From Candidatus Wirthbacteria bacterium (GTDB lineage Bacteria > Patescibacteriota > CG2-30-54-11), in assembly GCA_903889905.1 (NCBI GenBank), contig CAISZI010000042.1, positions 6,000-69,999 on the forward strand: DNA of 64,000 bases, given 5' to 3'. The number at the start of each line of letters is the position of its first letter. The stretch's first letter is position 1. The translations under genes were made by a program, and so were the position numbers. The notes under the pieces are model-generated. The model had not been told where the DNA came from. It ran no database searches and was given only the letters and a program-made list of their open reading frames with translations. Below, piece after piece: positions 9,701-63,277 of this stretch.

Positions 9701-12700
9701 CTCTTCGTATTTGGTAAAAGTACCAGCCAAATCACGCAAATCAACACCAAGAGCTTGAGCCTTGGTGATATTGTCGCGGTAACGTTGGACTAATTTTTTG
9801 TCCACATCTTCCGCAAGTTTCCTTTCGGCGGCGTTAAATGCAGTAAAATTGAGAAAATCGTCCGATTGCTCTGGTAAAGCCTTAACATCAATGCTCAGAC
9901 CGCCAGCCATTTGACGATCTCTTGAATAGGATTGCTTCAAAATGGCTGACTGTAGAGCCTCGTGTTGCGTCTTCAGCACCCCAACATCAGTACTCGGAAC
10001 GAGTGGTAAATGCAGTGCATCGAGGCTAATGTTTAAACCCTGGGCGATTTTGACGCGCTCGATGTAAGCCGATGCGTCATCTGTCCCGGCAACTTCAAAA
10101 CCACGCCGGCCCAAAGAATGCGCCGACCCGGCCAAAACTGCTTCTACTTGAAAATTAACTGCGGCTTCCCTGGCAACGCCTTCTGTCCCAACCTTAAGAT
10201 AGCGGCCATAAATGTCCAAAGCTGATTCTAAATCGTAAACTCTTGGAGTGGAAATCACGTCTTTGACAATGGGCGCTTTGATTATTTCAGCTTTCAGCGG
10301 TACAGGAATCGTCAATTTGTAAGAAGATGTAACTTTGAAAAAATACTTTTTAACGATTGGAGCGGTACCAAACGTTTTGGTCTCAATCTGTACATCTACA
10401 TGGGGATCTGTCCCACCACGTGCTTGAATATCAACCATTTCTTTGTCTACAATCGCTTGTTTGAGATCGTTGAGTTGGTTGGGATCAGCTTCAATTGCCA
10501 ATTTCTTATCAGCTTTGAACTTATTGTAGGCAGCGCCTGACAGGCTGAGCGCACTTTCGCTAACGAGTGTTAGCGCGTCTGTCTTTGCCTTGTCGAGTTT
10601 GCGATAGGCCGTCAGCAAACTTTCCTTTGACGCCACTTCGTCAATGTCTGACATGTTGATGCCGGCGGCAAGGCGGATTTCTGGCGTGAAACGAGAATCT
10701 TCCAGCACCGCTTGCTTGAGGTCTTGCAATTTGCGGCGCCAAAGTCTGCCGTCGTAATAACTGAGACGCACTTTGGATAGTTCTGCTTGGAGCTCAGCCA
10801 CCGATAACTTTTTATTGGCCTTTATTCTTGCAACTTCCGCCTTGGCAGCGTCAAAATCATGATCACCGCCAAAAGTACTTACCAAGTAGTCCAATGAGGC
10901 GATAACTGGCGCTTTGGCCTCCGCATCAAGCCGCATCGCCTCGCGCACTGCTTCAATTGCATCCCGAACTTCGGGTACCGGGGTCTCGGTCATCGGATTT
11001 GCCAACAGCGTCAACGCGTCACGTGCGGCCGTCAATTTTTTTTTGCGATCGCTAAAGGCCTGTTTGGCCACTGCTTCGGTGGGAGCTTTGTCATCGGTCA
11101 TTTTGGCTAATTCAGCATTAATGCCTTCAACCGTCACGCCCATCCCCAGTGCTTCATGGCGGAGCTTTCGACCCAATCCCTGAACTGTGTTAACCTTTTT
11201 GCATTCAGAACGCAATACATCCAATTGCATTTGGAGTTGATACAAATTGACATTTTCAGTTTGGATGCCGGGCTCATGACGAATTTGGACACGCGTAAAG
11301 TATTCCGTATCCAGTTTTCGTAATTCAGCTATGGCGGCTGCTCGACTTGATTGATTATGTTTGAGTTCTTTTATGGTGCGAGCCTCAACAATGTGGAATC
11401 CAATCAATTCCGGCTTGGTCAAGTCTGGTGTTCCTTTGATGGCAATCACCCAGCGCTTATCCAAAGCGGCATTCGGTGGGGAGCCGGCATCTGGCTGGGA
11501 AAGAATGAAAAACTCAAAAGTAGGGCTTTGGACATGCTGGACAAAAGGCAACCGTTCCATTTTATTGGCTGGTAGTGAACCGGCGTCTGCCAAGACCTGG
11601 TTGATGTTTTCCAGTGAAAGCGGAAGACCCAGCCTTGCGGAAAGCGCAAAAAGAGTCGATGCTTTAGAAGTCGCTTTTTTCTTGTCATAGGTGACACCAC
11701 CAATATTCTCCATCAGCCCATTAGCAGCGTTTTCTTGCTCATTTTGATGGGCTGCAATACCAGCTTTAAATTTTTCGTATGCAGCCTTACCAGCATCAGC
11801 GGCAATCAGCATCGATAAATCTTGGTCTTGATGAAACTTCTGACGATTACTTTCGAGTGTGGACTTTAGCGCTTCCTCGACACATATTTCTATTCTTGCC
11901 TTGGACTTGTCAGTACTCAGGGATAATTGCCGGTCAAGTTCATTAACAAACTCAGAGTCATATAGGACAGTGCCAATCAATGGTCCCTCATTGAGATTAT
12001 TTTTTCTGGCAACCGTTAAAAAAGCCAACATTTCAGCTATGCCTTTGTTAGGAGATGCGTCCAATTTGTCAATCAACTCGGTCCGCACTTTTGGATGAAA
12101 AACGGCGTTGAGCTGGGATGCGACCTCCGATTCCATAGCATTATGGGCAACTTTACTCTGGGCATCGCGCATGGCTTCAACCATTCTACCTTCGGCTGCA
12201 ATTTTATTTCCACCTGCTGTGGTCACAATTTCCCTGTCAAAGCCCAAATTGACGTGATGTTCAGTCTTGATACGTAAATAGGATTTTGCACGACGGATGG
12301 CGTCACCAATGGCAGAGCTGCCATGGTGGTGAGTTCCTGGGCTCACAAGGGATTCAATTTTGCCCAGGTAAATGCCCAATTCCAGATATGTATGAATGCT
12401 GGTATTTTTGCTCTCGTCAACAGATTCAAAAAGCGCTTTGATGTTTTCTTCCGAAAGTACTGTATCGATGAACTGCTTGAAATGGGCATAAACAAGATTA
12501 TCCAGCTCGGGAATACCGGATTGTTTGTCTTTGATAATATCAACAGCATCCCGTAATTTATCAATGACATCAATCGTCTTGAGCGGGTCAACACTCGAAG
12601 CATCCAGTTTAGCGAAGGCATCATTAAACTTATTGAGTGGGTGTTTGTCCAGGAAACTTTTGATTTTGTCTCTCAGACCCTCTAATTTTGACTCATAAGT

Positions 12701-13540
12701 TGCGGCCTCATCAAAGGCAGCCAGAATGGACGCGGCACGGCTTTCAACTACTTCATCCTGTTTATCTTTCGAGGGTCTAGTTTCTTTTTTGCCAGAATCC
12801 AAAACCGATTTCAAATTGGCTTCGAGCTTTATCAGCTCACTTTCGAGATTTTTAATATTATGTGCAGCAGGATGGTTCGTTTTAAGGTCCTTGATTTCAG
12901 CCTTAACGCCGACAATATCCTTACGCAGTTGCGTCGTCGTCGCCACTAATGCGTCATAGGCATTCCCCGATTCCCACGCGGCTTCAGCCAGGATTCGGCT
13001 CAGAAGTGTTTGCACTGCTTCGGTTAAATCAGTCCCGGAGGCATTTTCTTCTTCCAAAGCCTCAATTACGTCCACATCGGACTTGTCATCCAAATTGGTC
13101 GGCAAATTGGCAGCAGTGCGTTCACTGGCGTTGCCGCGGGGCGGATTATGCAAAGATCGTTGTTCAATGGCAATGTTTTTAACAAGTTCATTGAACAACG
13201 GAGAATAACTATTAATCCGATCGATCTCATTGCTGAAGGCATTAACAGCCACCAAACGCTTCTCAATCTGTGCGGCATTGGCATGGGCGGCAAACTTATC
13301 AGTAGAAGCCTGACGGGTTGCCACGATTTTTTGGGCATCTTTAGGTTGAAGCCGTTTGGCGGGATTGGCTTTTTCGGCTTCCAGTTGAGCCAGTTGCGCG
13401 CTATCCAAATCAGCCAAATGGGTTAATTCTGCGTCGGCGATAGCGTCAAAGGCGTCTTCGATTGGATCCACTGGTTTGACGTTTGAGTCATCAGAATTGT
13501 GAAACGCATCTTCGCTTAAAGTCATGGGTTTCCCCACCAT
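3722..13540 (-). CDS. Giant protein of 3272 aa with unknown function. It is acidic, predicted alpha-helical and coiled-coil rich, and has interspersed ~45-aa beta-rich repeat modules. No TM segment or signal peptide is present.
   Basis: A single uninterrupted 9.8 kb ORF, with only short antisense ORFs opposite it. It contains repeated modules: VKVTWVKAQQKYVIRVESKD...SIGLEEAVKLY (about 8340-8530), VEVLWDAAGQKYDVKVISNT...SIKLENAIKFY (about 7130-7290), EVTYDRVHKEFTVKVSYKEP (about 9150-9215), KFEINSITYDDKSDTFDFDLRL (about 8800-8890) and a C-terminal VKYDSEKREFDVFLRIEQ (about 3760-3900). I see no recognisable enzymatic motif. An alternative start at Met6 (13525) is preceded by GGTGGGG. Confidence 0.85.
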   Translation of the reverse strand: MVGKPMTLSEDAFHNSDDSNVKPVDPIEDAFDAIADAELTHLADLDSAQLAQLEAEKANPAKRLQPKDAQKIVATRQASTDKFAAHANAAQIEKRLVAVNAFSNEIDRINSYSPLFNELVKNIAIEQRSLHNPPRGNASERTAANLPTNLDDKSDVDVIEALEEENASGTDLTEAVQTLLSRILAEAAWESGNAYDALVATTTQLRKDIVGVKAEIKDLKTNHPAAHNIKNLESELIKLEANLKSVLDSGKKETRPSKDKQDEVVESRAASILAAFDEAATYESKLEGLRDKIKSFLDKHPLNKFNDAFAKLDASSVDPLKTIDVIDKLRDAVDIIKDKQSGIPELDNLVYAHFKQFIDTVLSEENIKALFESVDESKNTSIHTYLELGIYLGKIESLVSPGTHHHGSSAIGDAIRRAKSYLRIKTEHHVNLGFDREIVTTAGGNKIAAEGRMVEAMRDAQSKVAHNAMESEVASQLNAVFHPKVRTELIDKLDASPNKGIAEMLAFLTVARKNNLNEGPLIGTVLYDSEFVNELDRQLSLSTDKSKARIEICVEEALKSTLESNRQKFHQDQDLSMLIAADAGKAAYEKFKAGIAAHQNEQENAANGLMENIGGVTYDKKKATSKASTLFALSARLGLPLSLENINQVLADAGSLPANKMERLPFVQHVQSPTFEFFILSQPDAGSPPNAALDKRWVIAIKGTPDLTKPELIGFHIVEARTIKELKHNQSSRAAAIAELRKLDTEYFTRVQIRHEPGIQTENVNLYQLQMQLDVLRSECKKVNTVQGLGRKLRHEALGMGVTVEGINAELAKMTDDKAPTEAVAKQAFSDRKKKLTAARDALTLLANPMTETPVPEVRDAIEAVREAMRLDAEAKAPVIASLDYLVSTFGGDHDFDAAKAEVARIKANKKLSVAELQAELSKVRLSYYDGRLWRRKLQDLKQAVLEDSRFTPEIRLAAGINMSDIDEVASKESLLTAYRKLDKAKTDALTLVSESALSLSGAAYNKFKADKKLAIEADPNQLNDLKQAIVDKEMVDIQARGGTDPHVDVQIETKTFGTAPIVKKYFFKVTSSYKLTIPVPLKAEIIKAPIVKDVISTPRVYDLESALDIYGRYLKVGTEGVAREAAVNFQVEAVLAGSAHSLGRRGFEVAGTDDASAYIERVKIAQGLNISLDALHLPLVPSTDVGVLKTQHEALQSAILKQSYSRDRQMAGGLSIDVKALPEQSDDFLNFTAFNAAERKLAEDVDKKLVQRYRDNITKAQALGVDLRDLAGTFTKYEEFWAVEEQINARMAAAKHLDEVKKRALEEWDVDPVSVQGAFYQINRQSEKAFLQVADAIESMIEVQKQNLIAQADKEIVRAKWWGVDQARLDNADRLIHDPKVQREDFNLVTQILDEAKSSLNLLKSDRLQLTNLDQIALIDARPELAEDLIKDLIEDRYTDNGKEDISIGEVTYDRVHKEFTVKVSYKEPNTTNASESPKGGARVTDEVVTIANDRDLAFGRKFATTQPRSFGEIPKDLKKLTLQDVIRLSNDHLEVIIKFYEESGREKIDLSTCKFEINSITYDDKSDTFDFDLRLELQAVKMPNLELTISGNDLLAAFKEIALLKLPAATGIGADVRMAAEAEVDRLRSGLQLFAEDRQPSRPANIPTKSVEEIRQEPASLEAGIQADVTDYVESSQRHDIKVKVTWVKAQQKYVIRVESKDLRDNAHIDVDSIGLEEAVKLYRFEDVEVNAVQKKAALQQEIASKLAEANVLGLDAALIADITKFVNEQMATAKLSEIQAALDKLDKGWIPKRLEAVFGLARTKHKTEIADKITTWNADPANTGDLTKARAFLTQISAELSKSLTDYSVEAQKQTETIEPLLVSAHKLHYKDLEDQLIKLKSDIFQEEPIEPIKEAIEKVKKNLQVRIEILVISKDIFRKLTIVPDSEKSDYDIINDTIQLHIEDPDNLVDYDGMVAFAKWARETVVTEDSRQVRHVKATIDTLVAEGTRIKIEADVTRVRDSVAASTDVVENWRVVNLLEGMIATEKRRGAIALFTGERKQGTMLAVHAAEEINADPELLKPTIERELNLYVLSLQRQDVRVEVLWDAAGQKYDVKVISNTTKDGANVEHTDIESIKLENAIKFYLDETVENEMTSVKAQRRQVLLDHIIEAKNYQSIDLIRAIGFVDTKKDSATLKEIETEIEVIDRAVNPLKIAKLIRDAEAHGYLVIANQLKARLGNAAEMEDYKATQVFLEKRAHDIKYFENLPEYLRNMAVLATLKQEARGRNFVDITAQLELLSTNPVRMADIDATKGAIENFRTELKIRVDLDDLNAEVTQKERLRPTYGSIHAKVTARLGDTAALADHAATRTFIRQMRTEIDAEDAAQVADAKQAIERLVNEANVLGIPEIRLEADSLASTGTVTELWQAVPQFEAVITAEKARRKEVSQDRFRLLVQVAEGLAEPIDTTDFRAEFNRATTLVEIDNLINGLNEQISARGESGSEIVDFRLPEDPSDQEFLLLERTILARARIIGTPLLEAVNAELSVHLNNPSQRKRRLRKLWKKVNPGWNDSEDRIAQANKDLHARVDKLRNEIKAAANRIRFTAEPVAQIDYEFDADNPRDVARVSLELQQRKVSGIYRIPMLQLSSLDLSQATEEDLIKETGRLEILLHDLEQISGADSFRPETEDVNIRFEMFGSQGLAGELGLPEATMAESLRQLLGGSVESVCKVTEGGNSYFVVMGHADNQIVRRLAIAPTGNTIGRLPLASVERITNEQIVNATANRESLVAIVTPKLQQIIEFEQSLGIAPSYNLDDMTLYQLGQLVDNLSRPGARVSAEVRKDPVDIMEKALDSMSSESLRQAAQEAGLEAESEIENQLKVIRIIETAALANAKQSKLEKVEDAIKEKERRKATGDDRSDSLLENINNDKTLFLRFSDDEIIQKREATKKILKIINESGRAGKVEVERTQPTAKDNLRMTMARNIKWLISTPDESLTADANQLIDKEEATDAECEELAVSIETAATTYFEQQKNDLLDVLAASLVNEYITVEQADQIRTFVAGDKEALMPGTIRTAQRRIENFSKDNSETVDRAIAGLAGPMRGVNTILDNHANLRAEHGEEIDRFEADYKRLSLATRLHDLNDIIEFRSHILTFQDTLLTYINQDDEYSADRTGPRRPHEDQADRNTGDFTAQQELLHKEPSMAFEMFKERYSDKVALTLARYPENVTHVTEVKYDSEKREFDVFLRIEQTGNQTVTILQEPKVRLAEAVTLMRRWSQATSTPGQKF

Positions 13541-13625: not shown

Positions 13626-13654
13626 TTGACCTAAGCGGTAATCCTTGTTATAAT
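13626..13654 (+). promoter_or_regulatory. Sigma70-like promoter (TTGACC-17 nt-TATAAT) for the small gene at 13691.
   Basis: TTGACC at 13626-13631 and TATAAT at 13649-13654 are separated by exactly 17 nt. The -10 lies about 36 nt upstream of the ATG. The same region is divergent to the giant-gene start. Confidence 0.4.
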
Positions 13655-13690: not shown

Positions 13691-13981
13691 ATGTCTGACA
13701 ACCAACAACCCGAAGAACACGTCCTGTTCTACCGCAGCGAAAAACTCGAACCGCGCGAGCTGGGTTATGAGCAGATTAAATTCGTGTTTATGAAACTGTC
13801 GGAATGGCTCCTTAGCCGCCGCCAGGAAACGCTGGAACAGCTGATGGAAATGCTCGAACGCCTGCAGCAGCTCTATCCACGTGCCTACGAATGGATGATG
13901 CAGATCATAGCCCAGCAGTTACCTCAGTTCCTGGGGACGCAACCGCCACCCATGGCGCAAACAGTACCGATTCCGACTTAA
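13691..13981 (+). CDS. Small hypothetical protein of 96 aa, predicted helical with a Gln/Pro-rich C-terminus.
   Basis: An ORF with a near-consensus promoter and a strong intrinsic terminator immediately downstream. It has no obvious Shine-Dalgarno and I recognise no domain. Confidence 0.5.
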   Translation: MSDNQQPEEHVLFYRSEKLEPRELGYEQIKFVFMKLSEWLLSRRQETLEQLMEMLERLQQLYPRAYEWMMQIIAQQLPQFLGTQPPPMAQTVPIPT

Positions 13982-13982
13982 C

Positions 13983-14011
13983 AAAATCCCGCCATAGTGG
14001 CGGGATTTTTT
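13983..14011 (+). terminator. Rho-independent terminator.
   Basis: aaaatcccgcc-atagt-ggcgggatttttt forms a perfect 8-bp GC-rich stem with a 5-nt loop and a T-run. It sits directly after the stop of the 96-aa ORF. Confidence 0.65.
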
Positions 14012-14038: not shown

Positions 14039-14177
14039 GTCATTGCGAGGGAGTCAGCGACCGCGGTAAGTTCATGGCTTGCAATGAACTTATCCAGCAC
14101 AGCTGGGCAATCTAGTTTCCAATTCTTACGGAGAAATCCACTAGATTGCCGCGCCCCGCGACGAGGCTCGCAATGAC
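14039..14177. repeat. Structured ~140-nt repeat element, copy 1. It has outer, middle and inner inverted repeats and could be a MITE-, REP- or ncRNA-like element.
   Basis: An outer stem (gtcattgcgagg ... ctcgcaatgac) encloses hairpin 1 (aagttcat/atgaactt, 14068-14091), a conserved block ccagcaCagctgggcaatctagt, and an inner 11-bp stem (ggcaatctagt 14106-14116 / actagattgcc 14140-14150). It shares this architecture and its conserved blocks with copy 2 at 18300-18440. Confidence 0.6.
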
Positions 14178-14331
14178 GGATTAGCATCGTTTGAACTAAT
14201 AAGGCCTACTTTGTTTCTCTGTGCTTTGTCGTATAATGCACCCGTAACCTGATCATTGTTAATACCGCGCACTTCGGCTATAATTAAATGATGCCATTTC
14301 CATCTTTTGGAGCAACGAAACCAACTCCCCC

Positions 14332-15381
14332 ATGAACGATACCCCTACTAACCAAAACCCAAACCTAAATAACACGACTTTCAGCCTGCTGCTGAAGTCT
14401 TTTGGGTTTAATGCGACCCAGGTGCAGTCGTCGCTAAGGGATGTCAATGAAATTCTCGAAAAGGAAATCCTGGGTGAGATTGCCGGCAAACTGACTGAAA
14501 GGCAGTTACACATCCTCAATACACTCAAGACACAACAGTCGGTCAGCCAGTTCATGAAGGAACAACTGCCGGATTTTGATGCGTTGCTGCGTGGCAAAGT
14601 TGAAAACCTGCTCAAAGATACGAACGCACAGCTCGACTCACTCAAAAATGTTGCCACAGCGCCATCTGTAACCCAACCCTCGGCTCCCCCTCTACCCCAG
14701 CCAGTACCAGTGCAAACAGCACCTGCCGTTGTCATACCAGCCGTTCCTGCCCCAATACCACAGCCACTACAGAGCTTTGCTTTGCCACTACCGGCAGCGC
14801 CTGTATTTCCACAACCAGCGCAAGCGTTGGTGCCAGTTACCGACAAACCCAATGCCGCAATGGATGATTTCAAAAAGAAAATGGAAGAGCTGCTCAAACC
14901 GCCCACAGGGCCCAAGGAAGTTGCCAAACCCCCAAGCACTGGCAAAGCGGGTGCTGATGGCAAATCCAAACTGCCTCCCCTGCCGCCACTACCGCCGTTG
15001 CCACCACTTAAGGGCGGCAAACCCGGTGGTTTTCCGGGCATGCCGGGCGCTGGTGGCCCAGCCAAAAAAACACCCGAAGAACTCAAAGCCGAAGAAGAAA
15101 AACGCCAAAAAGAACGTGCCGAAGCGGAACAAAAGATTGCCGAACAGCACAAGCTGGACGAAGCGGAAGTTGCCAAACTGATCGCTGAAATTATGGCCAT
15201 TGACGAAAGTGCCGGTAAAGCTGCTGAGGACGGGCCCCATGAAAAGAATTTTCTCAATAAGAAATACGAAAACAAATTACTGCATCAGCTCGAGCGCGCC
15301 GCGGGTAAGTCACAATGGCAACAAGGCGCGGAAATTTTTCATTTGCTCAAAAATCTGCGTCGCAAAGCCAACCAGCCTTAA
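14332..15381 (+). CDS. Proline/Ala/Lys-rich low-complexity protein of 349 aa, hypothetical.
   Basis: An ORF with PLPPLPPLPPLK and PxP-repeat tracts, a charged helical C-terminus (EELKAEEEKRQKERAEAEQK) and no TM. The 338-aa minus-strand ORF opposite it is an antisense shadow. It is co-directional with, and overlaps the start of, the ATPase gene, which suggests an operon. Confidence 0.6.
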   Translation: MNDTPTNQNPNLNNTTFSLLLKSFGFNATQVQSSLRDVNEILEKEILGEIAGKLTERQLHILNTLKTQQSVSQFMKEQLPDFDALLRGKVENLLKDTNAQLDSLKNVATAPSVTQPSAPPLPQPVPVQTAPAVVIPAVPAPIPQPLQSFALPLPAAPVFPQPAQALVPVTDKPNAAMDDFKKKMEELLKPPTGPKEVAKPPSTGKAGADGKSKLPPLPPLPPLPPLKGGKPGGFPGMPGAGGPAKKTPEELKAEEEKRQKERAEAEQKIAEQHKLDEAEVAKLIAEIMAIDESAGKAAEDGPHEKNFLNKKYENKLLHQLERAAGKSQWQQGAEIFHLLKNLRRKANQP

Positions 15382-18056
15382 CTTTTAGTCCAAGCCAACC
15401 CATGCCCCCTTCTCCCCAGGATTCCGGCAACGAAGCCTATTTCGGATTCAAAAGCAGCACCGCTCTGGTCGTTGGCATACTGGTGATTGTGGGCGCGCTG
15501 ATCGTCTCTGTGGTGAGTACGGCGTCACTCCGGAATCAACTGGACGCGACGAGTTTTGACGTTGGTTCGCTCTCCCTCACGGTTGGGATTGGCGTCGGCA
15601 TCGCACTGGGAGCACTGCTGCTGCTTTATATCATCGCCATGCTGATGCTGACTCGTATCCGTCACCACTATCGCCGCGAGCGGTCCCTAAACAGTGTGCT
15701 GATCTCGGTCAAGGTGCCTAAATTCACCGAAATCCTGGCCGACGCCTCGGAAGCTATTTTTAATAGCCTTTATAGTGTTTACGAAGCTTCCACGCTCACC
15801 AAACGCATCAACAAATACTTTGCCGGACAGGAATCGTTTAGCTTTGAAATTGTCTCCCAGAAACAAAGCATCGACTTCTATATGTATGTGCACAAAGATT
15901 TGGCAGAATTGCTCTCGCGCCAGATTTACTCCCAATACCCGGACGCGGACGTGGCAATTGTCGAAGATTACAGCGTTTTTTTTCCGGACTGCCGCATCAA
16001 GTTCACCGAACTGCGCCAGACCGCTGAGCCTGCCCACCCGATCAAAAGTTACCGTGATTTGGCCAAGGAAGCCGGCACGCAGCAACTCAAGGACATTACC
16101 GTGGATTCGATGAGTGCGCTCACCAACGCCATTGGCAAACTCGAGGAAGACGAAGCCGCGGTGGTGCAGTTTGTCATCCGGCCCACCGGCAAACAGTGGC
16201 AACAGGAAGGCGAACAGCTGATCAAGAAAATTTACGACAAAACCAAAGGCAAAGATAACCAGCCAGGTGAACAGCTCACCAGTGGCGACCAGGAAAAAAT
16301 CCGTGCCCTCGAGAGCGCCATTTCCAAACCTGGCTTTGAAACAGTGCTGCGCATAGTCACGGTATCGGACACAGAAAACAAAGCCGACATGAATCTCAAA
16401 AATATCCTGGCTGCGTTTGAACACTTTGCCATCGTTGGCCACAACCGCCTGCATCGCAAAAAACGTATCAGCAAGACCTTTTTCTTCCGCAGTTTCCTCT
16501 TCCGTTACATGCCGCTGATCAACTACAAACCGGCCAAATGGCTGTTTGGGCTGAATCCCTTCATTGGCCGCGTCTTTGGGCAGACAATGACTTTTAATAC
16601 CGAAGAACTGGCCTCGCTCTACCACTTCCCCAATAAAAACATCAACACCCCGCAGATCAACTGGCTCAAAGCCAAACGCGCCCCGGCGCCGCAGGAAGTC
16701 CCGACCACGCTGATGAAAAAGGGCCAGGTGGCCGAGGCAAAAGGCGACGTGATCATGCAGGACCGCAATGTCATGGGTTTCAACATGTATCGCGGCGTGA
16801 AGAAAGATGTCTGCATCAAACGTGAAGACCGCCGCCGCCACGTCTACTCCATTGGCCGCACGGGTATGGGTAAATCCGTCTTTATGGAAAACCAGATTTA
16901 TCAGGACATCGTCAACGGCGAAGGCGTTTGCGTCATCGACCCGCACGGCGACCTGGCGCGCAAGTGTCTGGAATTTGTGCCCAAATCGCGCATCAACGAC
17001 GTCATTTACTTTGACCCGTCCGATGTGGAGCGGCCTATGGGTCTCAATATGCTGGAAGCCCACACGCCCGAGGAAAAAGACTTTGCCGTGGCCGAGATGG
17101 TCGCCATCCTGTACAAACTCTTTGCCGAATTTATTGGGCCGCGGTTTGAACACATTGTACGCAACTCGATGCTGGCGATCATGGAACATCCCGATGGTGG
17201 CACGCTGGTCGAAATGATGCGCATCCTCACCGACGACGCCTACAAGGACGAGTGTCTGAAATACGTCACCAATCCGCTGGTCAAGGCGTTCTGGCAAGAA
17301 GAAATGGCGCAACAAGTTCAGTTCCACAAATCCGAGATGCTGGGGCCAGTGCTGTCCAAATTTGGCCGTTTTGTTTCCAATGACATGATGCGCAACATTA
17401 TTGGCCAGACCAAAAGTGCATTCAACTTCCGTGAAATCATGGACAAACAAAAAATATTGCTGATCAACCTCGCCAAAGGTAAAGTCGGTGACATCAACTG
17501 CAACCTGCTGGGCATGATTGTGGTTTCCAAACTGCTGATCGCGAGCCTTAGCCGCACCGACATTGCCGAGGAAGACCGCAAGGATTTTTACCTCTACGTC
17601 GACGAATTCCAGAACTTTGCCACGGACAGCTTTGCCACGATCCTGTCGGAAGCCCGTAAATACCGCCTCAGTCTCAATGTTACCCACCAGTACGTGGGCC
17701 AGCTCAAGGAAGAAATCCAGAAAGCCGTATTTGGTAACGTCGGTACCTTCATCAGCTTCCGCATCGGTGCGCCGGACGCGGAACTCGTGGCCAAGGAATT
17801 CAAACCGATTTTTGATGAAACCGACATGGTCAATGTCGAGAAATATACCTGCTACATCAAACTGCTGGTGGACGGTGTTACGACCAAAGGTTTCAGCATG
17901 CACACTTTCCCGCCGGTCAAGATCAAGCACCAGAACTACGCCGACAAAATCCACGAAATCTGCCGCCTCAAATACGGCCTCCCGCGTTCACTGGTGGACA
18001 AAGAAATCCGCCGCCGTGGACAATTGGACAAGGTATTGCAAGCGGCGGGACAGTAG
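15315..18056 (+). CDS. Membrane-anchored P-loop ATPase of the FtsK/HerA/VirD4 (TraD/TraG type IV coupling protein-like) superfamily.
   Basis: 913 aa. Two N-terminal hydrophobic helices (ALVVGILVIVGALIVSVV and IGVGIALGALLLLYIIAMLML) precede a soluble middle domain. The C-terminal NTPase has Walker A GRTGMGKS, a VIDPHGD motif and a Walker B-like YLYVDEFQNF, and ends with SLNVTHQYVGQL. The true start may be the Met at 15402 (MPPSPQ), which would remove the 67-nt overlap with the upstream gene. The 755-aa ORF on the opposite strand is a shadow. Confidence 0.8.
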   Translation: MATRRGNFSFAQKSASQSQPALTFSPSQPMPPSPQDSGNEAYFGFKSSTALVVGILVIVGALIVSVVSTASLRNQLDATSFDVGSLSLTVGIGVGIALGALLLLYIIAMLMLTRIRHHYRRERSLNSVLISVKVPKFTEILADASEAIFNSLYSVYEASTLTKRINKYFAGQESFSFEIVSQKQSIDFYMYVHKDLAELLSRQIYSQYPDADVAIVEDYSVFFPDCRIKFTELRQTAEPAHPIKSYRDLAKEAGTQQLKDITVDSMSALTNAIGKLEEDEAAVVQFVIRPTGKQWQQEGEQLIKKIYDKTKGKDNQPGEQLTSGDQEKIRALESAISKPGFETVLRIVTVSDTENKADMNLKNILAAFEHFAIVGHNRLHRKKRISKTFFFRSFLFRYMPLINYKPAKWLFGLNPFIGRVFGQTMTFNTEELASLYHFPNKNINTPQINWLKAKRAPAPQEVPTTLMKKGQVAEAKGDVIMQDRNVMGFNMYRGVKKDVCIKREDRRRHVYSIGRTGMGKSVFMENQIYQDIVNGEGVCVIDPHGDLARKCLEFVPKSRINDVIYFDPSDVERPMGLNMLEAHTPEEKDFAVAEMVAILYKLFAEFIGPRFEHIVRNSMLAIMEHPDGGTLVEMMRILTDDAYKDECLKYVTNPLVKAFWQEEMAQQVQFHKSEMLGPVLSKFGRFVSNDMMRNIIGQTKSAFNFREIMDKQKILLINLAKGKVGDINCNLLGMIVVSKLLIASLSRTDIAEEDRKDFYLYVDEFQNFATDSFATILSEARKYRLSLNVTHQYVGQLKEEIQKAVFGNVGTFISFRIGAPDAELVAKEFKPIFDETDMVNVEKYTCYIKLLVDGVTTKGFSMHTFPPVKIKHQNYADKIHEICRLKYGLPRSLVDKEIRRRGQLDKVLQAAGQ

Positions 18057-18146: not shown

Positions 18147-18265
18147 GTCATTGCGTGGCTCTCCACAACGGTCCGTTTCATAAGTAGCACGGATTCCTGC
18201 TTGCTAGCAGGCAAGCTTCCTCCTTTGCCTGGCTTCGGAGGACAAGTCGCTGCACGCAGAATGAC
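18147..18265. repeat. Degenerate third copy of the structured repeat, lying in tandem just upstream of copy 2.
   Basis: It starts gtcattgcgtgg and ends ggacaag...cgcagaatgac, so it keeps the conserved termini. It contains two internal hairpins (gcttgc-tagcag-gcaagc and tcctcc...ggagga) in place of the canonical ones. Confidence 0.35.
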
Positions 18266-18299
18266 TACATTTGCCCTTTGCAAGGGGATAGAAAGTGCT

Positions 18300-18440
18300 G
18301 TCATTGCGAGGAGCCTCGACGTGGTTAGTTAATAGCTTGATATAAACTAATCCAGCAAAGCTGGGCAATCAAGTTGCTTGAATGTCTGCGACAGCAAACG
18401 CCACTAGATTGCCATGCCTTGGGACAAGGCTCGCAATGAC
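18300..18440. repeat. Structured ~140-nt repeat element, copy 2, in direct orientation relative to copy 1.
   Basis: gtcattgcgagg ... ccagcaAagctgggcaatcAagt ... ccactagattgcc ... aaggctcgcaatgac. Hairpin 1 has a different sequence but still pairs (ttagtt/aactaa, 18325-18350), and the inner loop forms its own hairpin. These are compensatory changes relative to copy 1. Confidence 0.6.
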
Positions 18441-41858: not shown

Positions 41859-41878
41859 ACCATCCTCACAATTAAAAA

Positions 41879-42934
41879 TTACGACAAGGCTTCTAACTGA
41901 TAGCTGATATTATCGTCTTTTTTGCGTTCCGCCAACTCCATGGCGACTTCCACGATAAAATCTTCCTGCCCGCCAATGATTTTGCGACGTCCAAGTTCGA
42001 CAAAAATATCCCGGGCATCCACACCAAACCGTTCCGCCGCTTTTTTGACATGCGGAGCAAACGCCGAGAAAACGCCTGCCATGCCACTGATCAGGCTGAT
42101 CGTAGTAATTTCCTGCGGCTTCTGCATCAAAGCAGTCACCACTTGCTCACTGACATCCATAAGTTGATACAAATTCAGACCGGTTTCAATCTGTTCCTTG
42201 ACTAGCAGTCCAGCCAGAACCTCAAGCTGACAGTTGCCTGCGCCAGCACCCAGCCCGCGTAATGTACCGTCAATAATTGTCGCCCCAGCCTTAATCGCTG
42301 TATAAGAATTTGCCACGGCCAAACTTAGATTGTTGTGCGCGTGAAAACCAACCGGTATTTGCAGGCCAGCGACGAGCGTCTGCACCGTCGTGGTAACCAT
42401 TTCCGGCAATGATGCTCCAGCCGAATCCATCAAAATCACCCCGAGGGCGCCGTAACTTTGCATTTTGAGCGCTTCTTCCAAAAGCTTGGGTGGGGTTGCC
42501 ATGTGATACATCATCAGCACACCATAAGCCTCCTTACCCTGCTCGCGCACAAATTCAATGTGCTGGCGAGTGACATCGGCTTCGGTACAATGCGTACCGA
42601 TACAAACCAGATCAACGCCAGCAGCAAGCGCTGGAGCCAAATTTTCCTTGATCGTACCAAACCCGGGAATCATAAATGTCCCCAATCTGGTTTGCTGCAG
42701 TTGACGACGAGCGGCCGTAAGCATCTCCAAATCAGTGGTTTTGGACAATCCAACCTGTAGCGACGATGCACCAAGTCCATTGCCGTGGCCGACGATAATT
42801 GTATGCAAACCAGCACCTTCCGCCTGGCTGCAGTAGACCGTGATCTGGTCAGTCGTGAGCTGATGCCCGATCGCATGTGATCCGTCCCGTAACGTAGAAT
42901 CAAAAAAAAGCGTTTTACCCATACTCATTCCCAA
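41879..42934 (-). CDS. 4-Hydroxy-2-oxovalerate aldolase family (DmpG/BphI/MhpE-like).
   Basis: 351 aa. It has the HMGL-like/DRE-TIM N-terminus (FFDSTLRDGSHA) and the C-terminal DmpG communication domain. Confidence 0.85.
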   Translation of the reverse strand: MGMSMGKTLFFDSTLRDGSHAIGHQLTTDQITVYCSQAEGAGLHTIIVGHGNGLGASSLQVGLSKTTDLEMLTAARRQLQQTRLGTFMIPGFGTIKENLAPALAAGVDLVCIGTHCTEADVTRQHIEFVREQGKEAYGVLMMYHMATPPKLLEEALKMQSYGALGVILMDSAGASLPEMVTTTVQTLVAGLQIPVGFHAHNNLSLAVANSYTAIKAGATIIDGTLRGLGAGAGNCQLEVLAGLLVKEQIETGLNLYQLMDVSEQVVTALMQKPQEITTISLISGMAGVFSAFAPHVKKAAERFGVDARDIFVELGRRKIIGGQEDFIVEVAMELAERKKDDNISYQLEALS

Positions 42935-48876: not shown

Positions 48877-48907
48877 ATAATCTAAGATTAATAATCGAAT
48901 ACAAACT

Positions 48908-51121: not shown

Positions 51122-51140
51122 TTATGACCTTTACAAAAGT

Positions 51141-53006: not shown

Positions 53007-53220
53007 GCTTCTCCTTAATTTTGGTATGACAAAATCGTTCGCTCTGCCTGATGACGTATAATTTCGAGCGTCAATGATTCTACATTAACGTAGCTTGAAT
53101 CACACAAAGGGATATAGTTGCCCGCTGGCTGATGCGACCAATTGGAATAACTGCAGATAGGACAAAAACAAATAGAACTGAAAAAAAATCAAGTGTCAGC
53201 AAATGATAGAACTTATTCAT

Positions 53221-57774: not shown

Positions 57775-57831
57775 TGGTTAACATTAACAAATCCAGGGTC
57801 TAAAGGAAAGTTTCAACGCTCGATACGAAAA

Positions 57832-59061: not shown

Positions 59062-59064
59062 GGT

Positions 59065-59829: not shown

Positions 59830-59856
59830 TGGTTATTTCCAAATAATGCACAAAAA

Positions 59857-61058: not shown

Positions 61059-62177
61059 CTACGAATTTTCATACCACTGCAGCACCTGACGGACATGCGA
61101 GTCCCAGTTAAATCTGGCCGCCTGCAATAGCCCGAACTGAGCCAGTTTAGCATGGAAGGCTTGGTCCTGCAAAACCTGTGCGGCAGCGGTGACCCAGGCG
61201 TTAACATCCGTTGTCGGTAAGAGCATGTCACTGTTTCCAACCACTTCCGGCAGCGAGGAATTATTCGCAACCAGTACCGGGCATCCGCAACGCATGGCTT
61301 CCAGTGGCGGCAGCCCGAAACCTTCGTAAAAAGATGGATAGACAAACAATGTGGCGGCTGAATAAAACACCGACAAATCAGCCTCAGGGACGTAACCAGT
61401 AAGCACTATATTGGCACGAACTTGAGCTGGCATGGCAGCAAGGCGTGACTCAAAATGCTGCAAAAACCAACCGCTTTTCCCTACCAGGACTAATTTTCCG
61501 TTGAATTTTCCCTGCGTTTGCAGCTGCTCAAACATGTCAACAATCAACCCCAGGTTTTTACGCGGTTCCAGCGTACCGACGTAGAGAATAAAATCTCCAC
61601 TAAGCTGATATTTGTCTTTAAGAATACTTAAAGCATGTTGTCTGAGCATGGGTTTCACAGAGGAACGAGCCGCAAGCAGAGCAGTTTCGATTTGGCCGCG
61701 AACCCTGTAGTGCGCCAGAATATCCTGTTGGGTGTGTTCAGAATCACACAGCACCAGGTCGGCGCGCCGGAAAATGAACGGGAAAATCAATTTGTGGACA
61801 ATGCGGCTGGCGCGGATGTGCCATTCGGGAAAAAGCACTGGCGTCAGGTCATGAATCGTGATGACTTTCTTATACGGGCCACCCCAGAACGTAAACGGCG
61901 CAATGTGGCTCAGGTCGTGTACCAGGTCAAAATGCTCATGGCGTAACAACCACGGTATCCAGAAAAACTTGCGCACTGTCGCCCAGAGTGGCAGTTTGCG
62001 ATGCAGCGGAATGATCTTCTCTCTCTTGCCGTCAAAAAAGGCATTGGGCTTGAGGTGGATATACACGATTTCATGCCCTGGATTATTGCGTTCCAGCGCT
62101 TCGATGAATTCTTTGGCATAAACGTAGATGCCGGCGTACTGTTCATCAATGGGGTCGGCGACGATGGCAATTTTCAT
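61059..62177 (-). CDS. GT4-family glycosyltransferase.
   Basis: The start is set at MKIAIVADPIDEQY (62177), giving an ATGA overlap with the upstream GT4. It has FVYPSFYEGFGLPPLEAMRCGCPV. Confidence 0.85.
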   Translation of the reverse strand: MKIAIVADPIDEQYAGIYVYAKEFIEALERNNPGHEIVYIHLKPNAFFDGKREKIIPLHRKLPLWATVRKFFWIPWLLRHEHFDLVHDLSHIAPFTFWGGPYKKVITIHDLTPVLFPEWHIRASRIVHKLIFPFIFRRADLVLCDSEHTQQDILAHYRVRGQIETALLAARSSVKPMLRQHALSILKDKYQLSGDFILYVGTLEPRKNLGLIVDMFEQLQTQGKFNGKLVLVGKSGWFLQHFESRLAAMPAQVRANIVLTGYVPEADLSVFYSAATLFVYPSFYEGFGLPPLEAMRCGCPVLVANNSSLPEVVGNSDMLLPTTDVNAWVTAAAQVLQDQAFHAKLAQFGLLQAARFNWDSHVRQVLQWYENS

Positions 62178-63277
62178 GACAGACTTTCGTATAATTGCCC
62201 ATACGCAGCAATCATCGTTTGCCATAATGGCAATGGTTTATCTGGTATGACATCAAAATCACCCAAAAGTGCACGCTCCATTGCCTTGACCAGTCCCATC
62301 GCGTCGCCACTGTGGAAATAATTCACTTTGCCCCACAAATTATCCCATAGCGCTCCCCCGTCACTCGCAATCAGCGGCGTACCCAATGCACAGGTTTCCA
62401 GTGCCGATAAGCCAAACCCTTCGCTGTACGATGGCACCACCACGCAACTTACGGACTGGTTGAGATGCAGGAGTTCGTCCCGTGGCAACGCACGCAAAAT
62501 GGTGATCCGTTGCGCATATTTTGTTTGTAAATCCGTAATTTGGCGCAGCAATACGCCATGTTCGGCGGCACCAATGATAAACAAAAAATTAAAATCAACC
62601 CGCTGCGGCAGCAACATCTCGAGTGCCCCAACCAGTACATCCACGCCTTTGGAAACACCCAGGCGACCGAAGTACAAAAAGGTAAACGGATTGGCTGGCC
62701 CCGCTGGACGCCCTGCAGCGCGCGGCTTCAAGACTGGCGGAGCAATGACATCCAAACCATTCCGAATGACCACAATTTTGGCAGCCGGGATCGAAACCTC
62801 CAGCAGCGTCTGTTTGGTGTATTCCGAAACTGCGACATAACGGGTATAAGGAAACAACAGGACTAATCGTTCCAGCAGCCAATGCATCGTCGCCGCTGCG
62901 CGATTAAATCCTTTGAACCAGATCTTGCCCAGCACCTCATGCACGATGATAAGCACGGGTTTACGCTTCAACCTGGCATAAAACCAGGCAGGTATCGCGG
63001 CGCTGTAGGTCGCGGTCTGCACCACGTCAAAATTGACCTTGAGTTTTAGCATGAAGAACAAGGCACTGACAGCAAATAAATAACGATTGGCGCCAAGCCG
63101 ATGGACTTCGACACCGTTTAGGCGCTCGCTTGCGGCGACGCCAGCACAACCGGTTGTAATCACGACAACCTGATGCCCACGCACGGCCAACCCTTCGGCC
63201 AGCCGCTGATACACCAGTTCGGCACCGCCAATTCTGGGCGCATAATTATCCACAACCAGCAACACATTTGCGGCCAA
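62174..63277 (-). CDS. GT4-family glycosyltransferase.
   Basis: 367 aa with NYAPRIGGAE and VVPSYSEGFGLSALETCALGTPLI. Confidence 0.85.
   Translation of the reverse strand: MAANVLLVVDNYAPRIGGAELVYQRLAEGLAVRGHQVVVITTGCAGVAASERLNGVEVHRLGANRYLFAVSALFFMLKLKVNFDVVQTATYSAAIPAWFYARLKRKPVLIIVHEVLGKIWFKGFNRAAATMHWLLERLVLLFPYTRYVAVSEYTKQTLLEVSIPAAKIVVIRNGLDVIAPPVLKPRAAGRPAGPANPFTFLYFGRLGVSKGVDVLVGALEMLLPQRVDFNFLFIIGAAEHGVLLRQITDLQTKYAQRITILRALPRDELLHLNQSVSCVVVPSYSEGFGLSALETCALGTPLIASDGGALWDNLWGKVNYFHSGDAMGLVKAMERALLGDFDVIPDKPLPLWQTMIAAYGQLYESLS

Follow-up and report, generated by a model that had tools for sequence, protein, structure and literature searches.

The DNA analyzed here is a 64,000-nt stretch (hereafter, the window) of Candidatus Wirthbacteria bacterium (GCA_903889905.1, contig CAISZI010000042.1, positions 6,000-69,999 of the forward strand). 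Its plus strand carries a gene for a disordered, proline-rich protein (hereafter, the partner) followed by a gene for a membrane-anchored ATPase. As proposed in an earlier note on this DNA, the two genes form one operon on the strand opposite to all else, and every other large ORF of the window is on the minus strand. The ORF list and translation of the window contain plus-strand ORFs of 349 aa (14332..15381) and 913 aa (15315..18056). The ATPase has a database twin of 884 aa, so that its start is probably at 15402; with this start, the two genes are separated by 20 nt and do not overlap. In the clade to which the window belongs (hereafter, the window clade), the plus-strand unit also includes a conserved 96-aa gene. 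The features of the locus are as follows:

13626..13654, plus strand: sigma-70-like promoter TTGACC-17-TATAAT with extended -10, upstream of the 96-aa gene (11/12 matches, consensus only)
13691..13981, plus strand: gene for a 96-aa helical protein, first gene of the unit in the window clade
13983..14009, plus strand: intrinsic-terminator-like hairpin (12-bp stem, 6 GC pairs) and T run after the 96-aa gene
14039..14177, plus strand: REP/MITE-like structured element, copy 1, with terminal inverted repeat GTCATTGCGAGG / GCTCGCAATGAC
14256..14284, plus strand: sigma-70-like promoter TTGTTA-17-TATAAT upstream of the partner gene (10/12 matches, consensus only)
14259..15275, minus strand: antisense "shadow" ORF of 338 aa opposite the conserved partner gene, not a gene
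14332..15381, plus strand: partner gene, 349 aa
14971-15009, plus strand: LPPLPPLPPLPPL tract, the (LPP)4 of the partner, by translation
15301-15378, plus strand: C-terminal basic helix of the partner, with Trp
15402..18056, plus strand: ATPase gene, 884 aa (913 aa from the alternative ATG at 15315)
15462-15530, plus strand: TM1, a hydrophobic helix, also a helix in the AlphaFold2 model
15576-15653, plus strand: TM2, a hydrophobic helix, also a helix in the AlphaFold2 model
15687..17954, minus strand: antisense "shadow" ORF of 755 aa, not a gene
15690-16721, plus strand: DUF8128/VirB4-NTD-like domain
16764-17921, plus strand: T4CP-type motor (Walker A at 16854-16877, Walker B at 17601-17618)
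17931-18053, plus strand: C-terminal three-helix tail of the ATPase
18147..18266, plus strand: putative degenerate third REP/MITE-like copy (weak evidence)
18300..18440, plus strand: REP/MITE-like element, copy 2, between the convergent ATPase and RodA genes

The 96-aa protein is 55% identical to the product of a 110-aa gene at the same position in the related locus L004 and 53% identical to that of a 98-aa gene in L090, and it has no match in Pfam or PADLOC; most family members lack such an extra conserved ~100-aa gene upstream. The two long antisense ORFs exist as described earlier, but they are not genes. Neither has a Pfam match, and the antisense stop-free stretch is 766 aa in the window versus 75-476 aa in relatives and is longer in genes with higher GC3. 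Because the stretch is not conserved and tracks GC3, we consider it a compositional by-product.

The GRTGMGKS (Walker A), VIDPHGD (16932-16952) and DEFQNF (Walker B) motifs previously read in the ATPase are all there, with key residues that do not vary among 41 homologues. Because Walker A, Walker B and several Arg, Gln and Asn residues are invariant, the enzyme is predicted to be active. Based on hydrophobicity and the AlphaFold2 model, the N-terminus is predicted to form a membrane anchor with two TM helices in the window clade, as also noted before, versus one in most family members; given the basic stretch behind the anchor, the remainder of the protein is predicted to be cytoplasmic. By sequence and fold, the motor is a RecA-like P-loop domain into which, as in TrwB, an all-alpha domain is inserted. 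It is followed by only ~40 helical residues, modeled as a short helical tail, and the FtsK gamma domain is absent, in agreement with the earlier note. The type IV coupling protein (T4CP) architecture suggested in that note holds for the anchor and the motor, but a ~340-residue domain between them was overlooked, which at the fold level matches the VirB4 N-terminal domain.

In the Pfam search that had been proposed, T4SS-DNA_transf scored 26.7 bits on the ATPase (cutoff 20.1). Among 41 family members, TraG-D_C matched all 41 and TrwB_AAD_bind 40, while AAA_10 matched only 3 of the 41 full-length proteins and FtsK_SpoIIIE gave weak matches in only 20. TrwB and DotL were the best matches in a PDB profile search. 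The NCBIfam models for TraD and VirD4 scored far under their cutoffs, which counts against a role in T4SS coupling. Scanned alone, the DUF8128 domain matched no Pfam family at E ≤ 0.01; in Foldseek, its top 13 matches were all TrwK/VirB4 (E 9e-7 to 2e-5). Thus, the ATPase is a VirB4/VirD4 hybrid, with DUF8128 folded like the VirB4 N-terminal domain and a motor that resembles VirD4/TrwB in both sequence and fold. Unlike VirD4, TrwB, TraD and DotL, it has the extra VirB4-NTD-like domain, is unlinked to relaxase or T4SS genes, and is chromosomal and near-universal in a phylum. In contrast to VirB4/TrwK with its VirB3 membrane anchor, the DUF8128 family has no sequence-level match to VirB4 families, and most of its members have one TM helix and not a hairpin; moreover, according to the accessible part of a 2025 survey by Quinonero-Coronel et al. 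(PMC12102498), Patescibacteria encode separate bona fide VirB4 and TrsD elsewhere.

We identified 165 homologues of the ATPase at E ≤ 0.001. Among the best 120 of these, all carry PF26449 (DUF8128), and every name stating an organism is a Patescibacteria lineage (Woesebacteria, Levybacteria, Amesbacteria) or plain "bacterium." NCBI names the family [quoted passage not shown] GTDB species representatives gave >600 matches, whose titles cover many candidate phyla, including Woese-, Levy-, Davies-, Magasanik-, Uhr-, Sacchari-, Dojka-, Berkel-, Doudna- and Peregrinibacteria and WWE3. The DUF8128 profile retrieved 4,880 cluster representatives, in which the domain always starts 40-100 residues from the N-terminus. 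A family member ~40% identical to the window ATPase (P0089, KKQ28445.1) is listed in Table S3 of the survey as "T4CP, t4cp1, 75.45% coverage, VirB4 proximity: No" (PMC12102498), which identifies the family with the Patescibacteria T4CP homologues not near virB4. In the portion of the survey available to us, T4CP homologues of any position, counted with the t4cp1 and t4cp2 profiles pooled and in draft genomes, are present in 2,918 of 3,035 genomes, with only 148 near virB4, and the family is assigned no function, partner or domain architecture (PMC12102498). A full-text literature search for "DUF8128" returned no paper.

The partner consists of an N-terminal helical region, a P/Q-rich disordered linker, the (LPP)4 tract, which corresponds to the proline tract reported earlier, a Gly-rich stretch, a charged helix and the C-terminal basic helix. 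It has no match in Pfam or NCBIfam. Over its full length, it is 31% identical to the partner in L004, which shares its (LPP)n tract and C-terminal W-helix. Window-clade partners (349-385 aa) differ from those of most members (median ~150 aa) in length and in their conserved (LPP)n tract. Of the 86 loci in which a full-length ATPase ORF is recognized, 80 have an upstream same-strand ORF at the partner position, and 54 distinct partner ORFs pass strict gap and length filters. In many loci, the partner gene lies ≤20 nt upstream of the ATPase gene or overlaps it, consistent with coupled translation. An HMM built from 13 Microgenomatia partner C-termini significantly (E < 0.01) matched only upstream ORFs and two fused ATPases (L040 and L061), both without a TM segment, with no false positives among ~1,500 ORFs. 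Partner C-termini are basic (net charge +2.2) versus an acidic body and amphipathic (hydrophobic moment 0.49 versus 0.40 in background ORFs, p = 4e-7). Only one neighbor of the ATPase is constant, namely this disordered upstream protein, which evolves fast and ends in a basic amphipathic helix; in two lineages, it forms one polypeptide with the ATPase and takes the place of the TM anchor. The window-clade partner aligned to the Microgenomatia motif with an hhalign E of 0.34, so that their homology is only positional, which counts against the T4SS-coupling reading.

The module is set among housekeeping genes and is not mobile. L004, in which the ATPase is 67% identical to that of the window, has the order UvrA, small gene, partner, ATPase, RodA and ParA, and the window synteny is common to L004-L007. 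The operon had been thought GC-richer, which is true relative to the giant gene (GC 0.451, GC3 0.421) but not relative to the RodA (0.546, 0.695), UvrA (0.529, 0.619) and ParA (0.521, 0.582) genes, which the ATPase gene (0.524, 0.678) matches. Thus, the module is very probably inherited vertically. In the window clade, RodA and ParA adjoin the module and ftsQAZ is 7.5 kb away; ScpA is close to it in L091 and DnaX in Paceibacteria-type loci. In 20 of the 86 loci, an Xer-type tyrosine recombinase is encoded among the three genes downstream of the ATPase, as is DivIC in 13; such loci come from Woese-, Levy-, Davies-, Shapiro-, Collier- and Dojkabacteria, while their upstream genes differ. In line with the earlier note, a Pfam scan of window ORFs, covering all minus-strand ORFs of ≥150 aa except the last (62174..63277), found no T4SS, pilus, relaxase or integrase genes.

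We tentatively favor the possibility that the module is a ring translocase that is tethered to the membrane, includes an adaptor subunit and serves a distant T4SS. By analogy with the hexamers of TrwB, VirB4, HerA and FtsK, the ATPase would form a ring on the inner membrane face and, judging from its family, would thread a polymer at the expense of ATP; the likeliest substrate is DNA or a DNA-protein adduct, and an unfolded protein is possible. The partner (acidic, disordered and proline-rich, with a basic amphipathic end helix) may be a subunit or adaptor at the membrane-proximal N-terminus of the ATPase. We infer this contact as well as the ring state and the substrate; binding of the two proteins is suggested by the conserved gene order and the two gene fusions only. 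The partner differs from the adaptors in CagZ-Cagbeta, TraM-TraD and DotM/N/IcmSW-DotL in being disordered and very fast-evolving, with no detectable homology to them. The module could then be the substrate-coupling ATPase for the VirB4/TrsD/VirB2-type T4SS encoded elsewhere in most Patescibacteria, and the VirB4-like domain would let the ATPase dock on this T4SS. To our knowledge, canonical T4CPs have no VirB4-like N-terminal domain, which we counted against this role. The absence of T4SS genes from the window and from the 88 neighborhoods analyzed also counts against it, as does a report, as far as it is accessible, that S. epibionticum has a non-essential t4cp homologue, in contrast to other T4SS genes, which are essential, although this homologue may not belong to the DUF8128 family.

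The main rival, which we regard as unlikely, is that the ATPase is a T4SS-independent, FtsK-like housekeeping pump acting on the cell's own chromosome at division (septum clearing, Xer dimer resolution, segregation), with the partner tethering it to the division machinery. The ATPase resembles FtsK/SpoIIIE in its superfamily and its membrane anchor, and the neighbors described above (Xer, DivIC, RodA, ParA, ftsQAZ, ScpA and DnaX) are chromosome- or division-related. The proline-rich disordered partner bears a loose resemblance to the P/Q-rich linker of FtsK. Many bacteria can dispense with the FtsK motor, which the non-essentiality reported for S. epibionticum would fit. In the accessible part of the survey, VirB4 is present in 2,417 of the 3,035 genomes and is thus less common than T4CP homologues, which supports this rival and counts against T4SS coupling; in part of Table S3, 17/17 Microgenomatia genomes carry one t4cp1-type match and 16/17 have no t4cp2 (TcpA/FtsK-like) match, although a few near-identical species make up most of this sample and the t4cp2 profile is not validated as an FtsK detector (PMC12102498). 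Against this rival, the ATPase has no gamma or winged-helix domain, and its FtsK_SpoIIIE matches are weak and confined to 20 of the 41 members noted above. Many Paceibacteria carry the DUF8128 family and t4cp2-type proteins together (t4cp2 matches in 9/12 genomes in part of Table S3; PMC12102498). TM7x has a gene annotated as ftsK (10.1101/2022.03.25.485537), so that the family does not replace FtsK in general. Also, Xer is on the opposite strand and, therefore, not in the ATPase operon, and chance neighbors are likely in small genomes rich in informational genes. A scan of 1.4 Mb of related loci for FtsK motifs found none, which says little with only ~1.5 copies expected.

It is less probable still that this stand-alone module is a motor for DNA uptake (e.g., via ComEC) or other T4SS-independent transport, including protein export. 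An orphan translocase that is anchored in the membrane and conserved throughout an auxotrophic phylum would fit this, as would the ComEC-dependent natural transformation of Saccharibacteria (review PMC12857230) and a weak match to NCBIfam CedD, an archaeal DNA-translocating ATPase (E 1e-4). However, CedD scored 20.9 bits, well short of its cutoff of 600, no channel partner was found, and the neighborhoods analyzed contain no com, pilus or transporter gene linked to the module. A HerA/DptH-like ATPase of an anti-phage defense system is very unlikely: the PADLOC matches to mad8 (E 1.5e-13) and HerA do not extend beyond the shared P-loop core, the vicinity lacks effector genes such as a nuclease, Sir2 or methylase, and the family, being near-universal, set in housekeeping contexts and apparently single-copy in Microgenomatia, is the reverse of defense islands, which are expected to be patchy.

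The idea of a mobile, repeat-bounded cassette exporting the adjacent giant protein is largely refuted. The repeats are real: a ~140-nt element with terminal inverted repeats GTCATTGCGAGG...CTCGCAATGAC occurs in direct orientation on either side of the operon (copies 1 and 2) and nowhere else in the 64 kb. The copies are 82-85% identical (direct repeat families D1 and D2) and have fold energies of -68 kcal/mol (copy 1, z = -6.9) and -53.6 kcal/mol (copy 2, z = -3.6). The terminal motif has five matches in the window (0.57 expected); the putative third copy has it with one mismatch (18147-18158) and a weak inverted match, CGCAGAATGAC, at the far end (ending at 18266). However, the element is a REP/MITE-like palindrome whose terminal motif also occurs in unrelated metagenome contigs; copy 1 has no Rfam match, and related loci do not have the element. 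It does not bound a foreign cassette: L004 keeps UvrA-...-RodA-ParA with neither repeats nor giant gene, the composition equals that of the neighbors, and there is no integrase or transposase. A 3,272-aa giant ORF adjoins the unit, and L090 has one of >2,400 aa 2.7 kb upstream of the module, but the two giant proteins have no detectable homology (best E 2.7) and no TM segment or signal peptide, the window giant has no homologue in 91 related loci, and large ORFs near the module are only sporadic.

Altogether, the window module very probably consists of a chromosomal member of the "orphan T4CP" family, which is near-universal in Patescibacteria and was here inherited vertically, and of the cognate partner encoded upstream. 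The earlier note had missed that the module is near-universal in these ultra-small "CPR" bacteria and that the family is already catalogued, in Pfam as DUF8128 and, in the part accessible to us, in the survey (PMC12102498). Beyond that survey, the analysis adds the lack of T4SS genes in 88 neighborhoods, the VirB4/VirD4 hybrid fold of the ATPase and its constant disordered partner, fused to it in two lineages.

The ATPase and its partner are encoded on the plus strand, and every other large ORF of the 64-kb window is on the minus strand, as the earlier note had stated. All motifs quoted there are present, i.e., GRTGMGKS, VIDPHGD, DEFQNF, two hydrophobic helices, and a proline tract.

Features of the plus-strand genes in the window
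13691..13981, plus strand: 96-aa gene, the third plus-strand gene, with its own promoter-like site and terminator hairpin
14256-14284, plus strand: second promoter-like site, ahead of the partner-ATPase pair
14332..15381, plus strand: partner ORF (ORF call), 349 aa
14971-15009, plus strand: LPPLPPLPPLPPL tract of the partner
15315..18056, plus strand: ATPase ORF (ORF call), 913 aa
15402, plus strand: likely ATPase start
15462-15530 and 15576-15653, plus strand: the two hydrophobic helices of the ATPase
16854-16877, plus strand: GRTGMGKS in the ATPase
16932-16952, plus strand: VIDPHGD in the ATPase
17601-17618, plus strand: DEFQNF in the ATPase

We place the likely ATPase start at 15402 because the twin of this protein in the database has 884 aa; this leaves a gap of 20 nt after the partner stop codon. 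The 96-aa gene is conserved at the equivalent position in relatives with 53-55% identity. The two antisense ORFs (338 and 755 aa) exist as previously described, but we do not regard them as genes: they match no family, they are not conserved among relatives, and they lengthen with higher GC3.

On one flank, UvrA is followed by the giant ORF and the three plus-strand genes. Beyond the ATPase, the order is RodA, ParA-like, NnrD, histidine kinase, sugar nucleotidyltransferase, HPF, and SerRS, then FtsZ, FtsA, FtsQ, Gmk, and LspA, and last a long glycan-synthesis cluster that ends in a Wzm/Wzt transporter. In agreement with the earlier note, no T4SS, pilus, relaxase, or integrase genes were found among the annotated window ORFs. 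Separately, the glycan cluster contains a low-GC stretch (47935-60000, minus strand; genes at 0.36-0.46) with glycosyltransferases, methyltransferases, the Wzm/Wzt ABC exporter, and two large ORFs lacking Pfam matches (48908-51121, 737 aa; 51141-53006, 621 aa); possibly, this stretch is a surface-glycan island subject to horizontal exchange. At 40050-43807 (minus strand), sugar aminotransferases and epimerases surround a TPP-dependent enzyme, a DmpG-like aldolase (HMGL-like and DmpG_comm), and an acetaldehyde-dehydrogenase-like gene. Such a combination is unusual for a Patescibacteria genome and suggests modified-sugar synthesis.

The two genes had been described as a repeat-flanked cassette, richer in GC by eye. 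The ATPase gene has a GC/GC3 of 0.524/0.678 and matches RodA (0.546/0.695), UvrA (0.529/0.619), and ParA (0.521/0.582); instead, the compositional outlier is the giant gene, which at 0.451/0.421 is clearly below its neighbors. In L004, a related locus with a 67%-identical ATPase, the order is UvrA (minus), a 110-aa gene (plus), a 385-aa partner (plus), ATPase (plus), RodA (minus), and ParA (minus), i.e., the window order without the giant gene, and the 3' ends of the ATPase and RodA genes overlap. The RodA-ParA-histidine kinase-NTP transferase-HPF side is common to the window and the related loci L005-L007. The repeats said to flank the cassette are real:

14039-14177: full copy of a strongly structured, multi-hairpin, REP/MITE-like element of ~140 nt
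18147-18266: degenerate copy
18300-18440: full copy of the same ~140-nt element, likewise strongly structured and multi-hairpin

The element is closed by GTCATTGCGAGG...CTCGCAATGAC, and one of its stems shows a compensatory change when the two full copies are compared. It matched neither Rfam nor tRNA, and we therefore rejected a known RNA. It was found in none of the related loci compared, including L004, and a metagenome scan recovered only its short terminal palindrome CCACTAGATTGCC...GGCTCGCAATGAC, which recurs in four unrelated metagenome contigs (L092-L095). We read the copies as lineage-specific REP/MITE-like insertions in two intergenic gaps and not as cassette borders. The plus-strand operon is bordered by no large intergenic gaps other than the two that hold the full copies, and the copies may therefore serve as terminators or insulators. 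Based on composition, the synteny with L004-L007, and the lack of the repeat in relatives, we rejected a mobile cassette; the locus is an ordinary, vertically inherited member of its family and not a mobile export module.

The proposal that the module exports the neighboring giant protein fared no better. The ORF in question is as follows:

3722-13540, minus strand: giant ORF, 3,272 aa, rich in Ala, Leu, Glu, Asp, and Lys

It has no Pfam match, TM segment, or signal peptide. The giant protein had no tblastn match in 91 related loci, and its gene is missing from the syntenic L004. Another related locus, L090, contains an extremely acidic giant ORF (38% Asp+Glu) 2.7 kb upstream of the module, with 2,415 aa inside the locus examined and 2,818 aa in the ORF call of the contig; it is unrelated to that of the window. 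We therefore rejected a link between module and giant protein, and consider a giant-protein exporter very improbable.

AlphaFold2 gave a confident model of the full-length ATPase (pLDDT 84.8, pTM 0.74). Two TM helices are followed by an alpha/beta domain (residues ~97-420), then by a RecA-like motor into which an all-alpha segment is inserted (~455-840), and finally by three short C-terminal helices. This P-loop motor, which is intact and conserved, belongs to the VirD4/VirB4/HerA clade. Among 41 family members, it matched the Pfam families TraG-D_C (41/41), TrwB_AAD_bind (40/41), and T4SS-DNA_transf (29/41), and the VirB4-type AAA_10 only weakly in three; the sole meaningful matches in a PDB sequence search were TrwB and DotL. 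By sequence, the motor thus appears to be of the T4CP type, and with no T4SS genes nearby, the ATPase is T4CP-like and stand-alone, as had been proposed. As in VirD4, TrwB, and TraD, it has an N-terminal TM anchor, which in the window consists of two helices; among 86 scored ATPase ORFs, 63 have one TM helix, 13 two (including the window clade), five three, and five none. Unlike canonical T4CPs, it carries an extra folded domain of ~340 residues (pLDDT 88) between anchor and nucleotide-binding domain, and no T4SS or relaxase gene was found in the 64-kb window or in 88 neighborhoods. This domain, DUF8128 (PF26449), has an alpha/beta fold that appears to resemble that of the VirB4 N-terminal domain; it is not a barrel like the N-terminal HAS-barrel of HerA. 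With an N-terminal half that appears VirB4-like and a VirD4-like motor, the ATPase is probably a hybrid of the two on a TM anchor. We rejected homology of DUF8128 to VirB4 N-terminal families at the sequence level, as a Pfam scan of the domain alone that reported matches up to E = 10 gave no family at E <= 0.01. In contrast to VirB4, the ATPase lacks a VirB4-type C-terminal ATPase sequence, and no T4SS locus was found near its gene in the window. It also differs from FtsK/SpoIIIE, whose alpha/beta motor is not its closest relative and whose gamma (winged-helix, KOPS-reading) domain it lacks, as noted earlier: only ~40 helical residues follow the motor, and Ftsk_gamma was not matched in Pfam.

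We identified 165 homologues of the ATPase at E <= 0.001. The best 120 of these 165 all contain PF26449 and are 37-67% identical to the window ATPase over 85-97% of the query; the organism names given by the source for the homologues listed are exclusively Patescibacteria lineages or plain "bacterium." A scan with one genome per GTDB species yielded at least 600 confirmed relatives. The titles of the 80 loci retained include Woese-, Levy-, Davies-, Curtiss-, Roizman-, Shapiro-, Collier-, Magasanik-, Uhr-, Falkow-, Moran-, Staskawicz-, Sacchari-, Dojka-, Berkel-, Doudna-, and Peregrinibacteria and WWE3. Searching with a profile of DUF8128 alone, built from the window ATPase and relatives, gave 4,880 matches among representatives of clusters at 50% identity, 3,042 of them with E <= 1e-10; the matches share one layout, in which DUF8128 always starts 40-100 residues from the N-terminus. 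The genes lie on chromosomes among housekeeping neighbors and are preceded by a small same-strand ORF. Together, these data show that the family is chromosomal and near-universally distributed in Patescibacteria. Several loci (L008-L010, L014, L022, L033, L036, and L085) carry non-Patescibacteria GTDB titles ("uncultured Gammaproteobacteria," "Bathyarchaeia," "Methylomirabilota," "Limisphaerales," and "Bdellovibrionales") despite a Patescibacteria-type gene. These titles appear to be placeholders or taxonomic mis-assignments because the gene and, where checked, its neighbors (the partner ORF; Xer and DivIC in L014) are Patescibacteria-like. Three contigs contain two DUF8128 paralogues: L032 has ORFs of 819 and 858 aa side by side, L064 has ORFs of 790 and 1073 aa with a few genes between them, and the two ORFs of L069 (855 and 975 aa) lie in one 22-kb locus. 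The 858-aa ORF of L032 and the 790-aa ORF of L064 lack the TM helix. Saccharibacteria-type members are longer (959-1027 aa).

A full-text literature search for "DUF8128" found no paper, and VirD4/T4CP terms were not found in Wang et al. 2023 (PMC10633639). The family is catalogued but uncharacterized, and it appears in the literature unnamed. Quinonero-Coronel et al. 2025 (PMC12102498) report T4CP homologues in 2,918 of 3,035 genomes, only 148 near virB4, and VirB4 in 2,417 genomes; they describe the S. epibionticum T4CP homologue as non-essential and comment that exaptation "cannot be ruled out." In their Table S3, our homologue KKQ28445.1 (P0089) is entered as "T4CP, t4cp1, 75.45% coverage, VirB4 proximity: No"; it is classed as T4CP and not VirB4, and its genome carries a separate VirB4 and TrsD. 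The portion of this table analyzed contains t4cp1 (VirD4-like) 349 times and t4cp2 (TcpA/FtsK-like) 166 times, and the 5,713 "T4CP homologues" counted in the paper appear to mix both classes.

When the ORFs of the 88 neighborhoods were clustered, the sole constant neighbor of the ATPase was the same-strand ORF immediately upstream, often within 20 nt of the ATPase gene or overlapping it. This partner, of 60-385 aa, has a high content of disorder-promoting residues and diverges too quickly to form one cluster; in 52 of 54 cases, it is free of TM segments. Its body is acidic, and its basic, amphipathic C-terminus has a net charge of +2.2 over the last 25 residues and a hydrophobic moment of 0.49 versus 0.40 for background ORFs (p = 4e-7), contrasts that are rough since the background set contains spurious ORFs. 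A homologue search with the partner gave only two matches because the sequence is fast-evolving and of low complexity. In Microgenomatia, the C-terminus follows the approximate motif (D/S)-x-x-(R/K)-W-L-x-x-(W/F)-x-x-(R/K)-x-x-K. We trained an HMM on 13 such C-termini; it significantly matched (E < 0.01) only upstream ORFs of other loci and two ATPase ORFs, with zero false positives among ~1,500 ORFs. In these two ORFs (L040:9521-12262 and L061:233-2773), the partner region with its motif runs straight into the start of DUF8128, with no TM helix. The fused region is disordered and proline-rich with the W-L amphipathic motif, and the L061 N-terminus is rich in LPPL/SLPP repeats, as is the window partner. 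The fusions argue for a partner that works as a subunit at the N-terminus of the ATPase, close to the membrane, and against a secreted substrate. They also suggest that the amphipathic helix of the partner can replace the TM anchor. The window-clade partner shares the position, the disorder, and a Trp-containing basic terminal helix (AGKSQWQQGAEIFHLLKNLRRK), and its (LPP)n tract is conserved within the clade; homology to the Microgenomatia motif lacks statistical support (no HMM match; hhalign E 0.34), leaving a positional likeness only. Separately, Paceibacteria-type loci encode a conserved ~210-aa protein lacking Pfam matches (cluster 2, 17 loci; e.g., L051:12553-13194), whose gene usually comes immediately after that of the ATPase and in many cases precedes DnaX; this protein may be a further, lineage-specific partner. 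A VirB4-like N-terminal domain, a VirD4-like motor, and an obligate disordered partner together make a variant of known T4SS ATPases of which we found no description.

We infer that the ATPase is a ring-shaped translocase that would thread DNA or another polymer. Our tentative reading is that it is the coupling ATPase of a patescibacterial T4SS encoded elsewhere: according to PMC12102498, T4CP genes are often unlinked from virB4, and the VirB4-like domain offers a possible docking mode. Non-essentiality is compatible with T4SS coupling if the essential T4SS function is pilus-related.

A rather doubtful alternative is that the ATPase and its partner are no secretion component at all but an FtsK-like chromosomal pump, a housekeeping DNA translocase derived from a T4CP/VirB4 motor and exapted for handling the chromosome at division. 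It would then cooperate with the divisome and a Xer recombinase, would replace an absent FtsK in Microgenomatia, and might be tethered to membrane and division machinery by the amphipathic helix and proline-rich arm of the partner. Consistent with such a pump, a Xer-type recombinase is encoded just downstream in 20 and DivIC in 13 of 86 loci, an adjacency that spans Microgenomatia and Dojkabacteria while upstream genes vary. In the window clade, the neighbors include RodA, ParA, and ftsQAZ; near the module, L091 has ScpA, and Paceibacteria-type loci have DnaX. In the portion of Table S3 analyzed, 16 of 17 Microgenomatia genomes have one t4cp1 match and zero t4cp2 matches, versus t4cp2 matches in 9 of 12 Paceibacteria genomes, a small, redundant, and indirect sample. 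Against an FtsK-like pump, the gamma domain is lacking, FtsK matches the structure less well, Paceibacteria have t4cp2 proteins alongside the family according to the same table portion, and one TM7x gene is annotated as ftsK. A scan of 1.4 Mb of related DNA for canonical FtsK motifs found none, although this result is statistically uninformative. The remaining candidates are less likely than T4SS coupling or a chromosomal pump. A DNA-uptake motor is improbable. A defense ATPase is hardly credible given that the PADLOC matches are confined to the P-loop core and the gene contexts speak against it, with no NurA, Sir2, or other nuclease gene near the module in the window or the neighborhoods analyzed.

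Thus, the observation in the earlier note was essentially correct, and its interpretation was right about a T4CP-like stand-alone ATPase; on mobility, composition, and the giant protein, it was mistaken. Much of bacterial diversity belongs to the Patescibacteria, whose genomes are tiny. Because these genomes keep this ~800-900-residue ATPase almost everywhere, it must do something important. In the literature, the family appears only as a T4CP homologue, possibly exapted. The question becomes testable through the combination of a VirB4-like N-terminal domain and a VirD4-like motor in one protein, an obligate, fast-evolving partner able to replace the membrane anchor, and stable neighbors that are division and chromosome genes and not T4SS genes. 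The ATPase may be the missing coupling protein of the patescibacterial T4SS, which is essential, or a motor of the conjugation type that was taken over for work on the chromosome; either answer would inform how the VirB4, VirD4, and FtsK families diverged. The module is ordinary for this genome; the DUF8128 family is a real puzzle for CPR biology.
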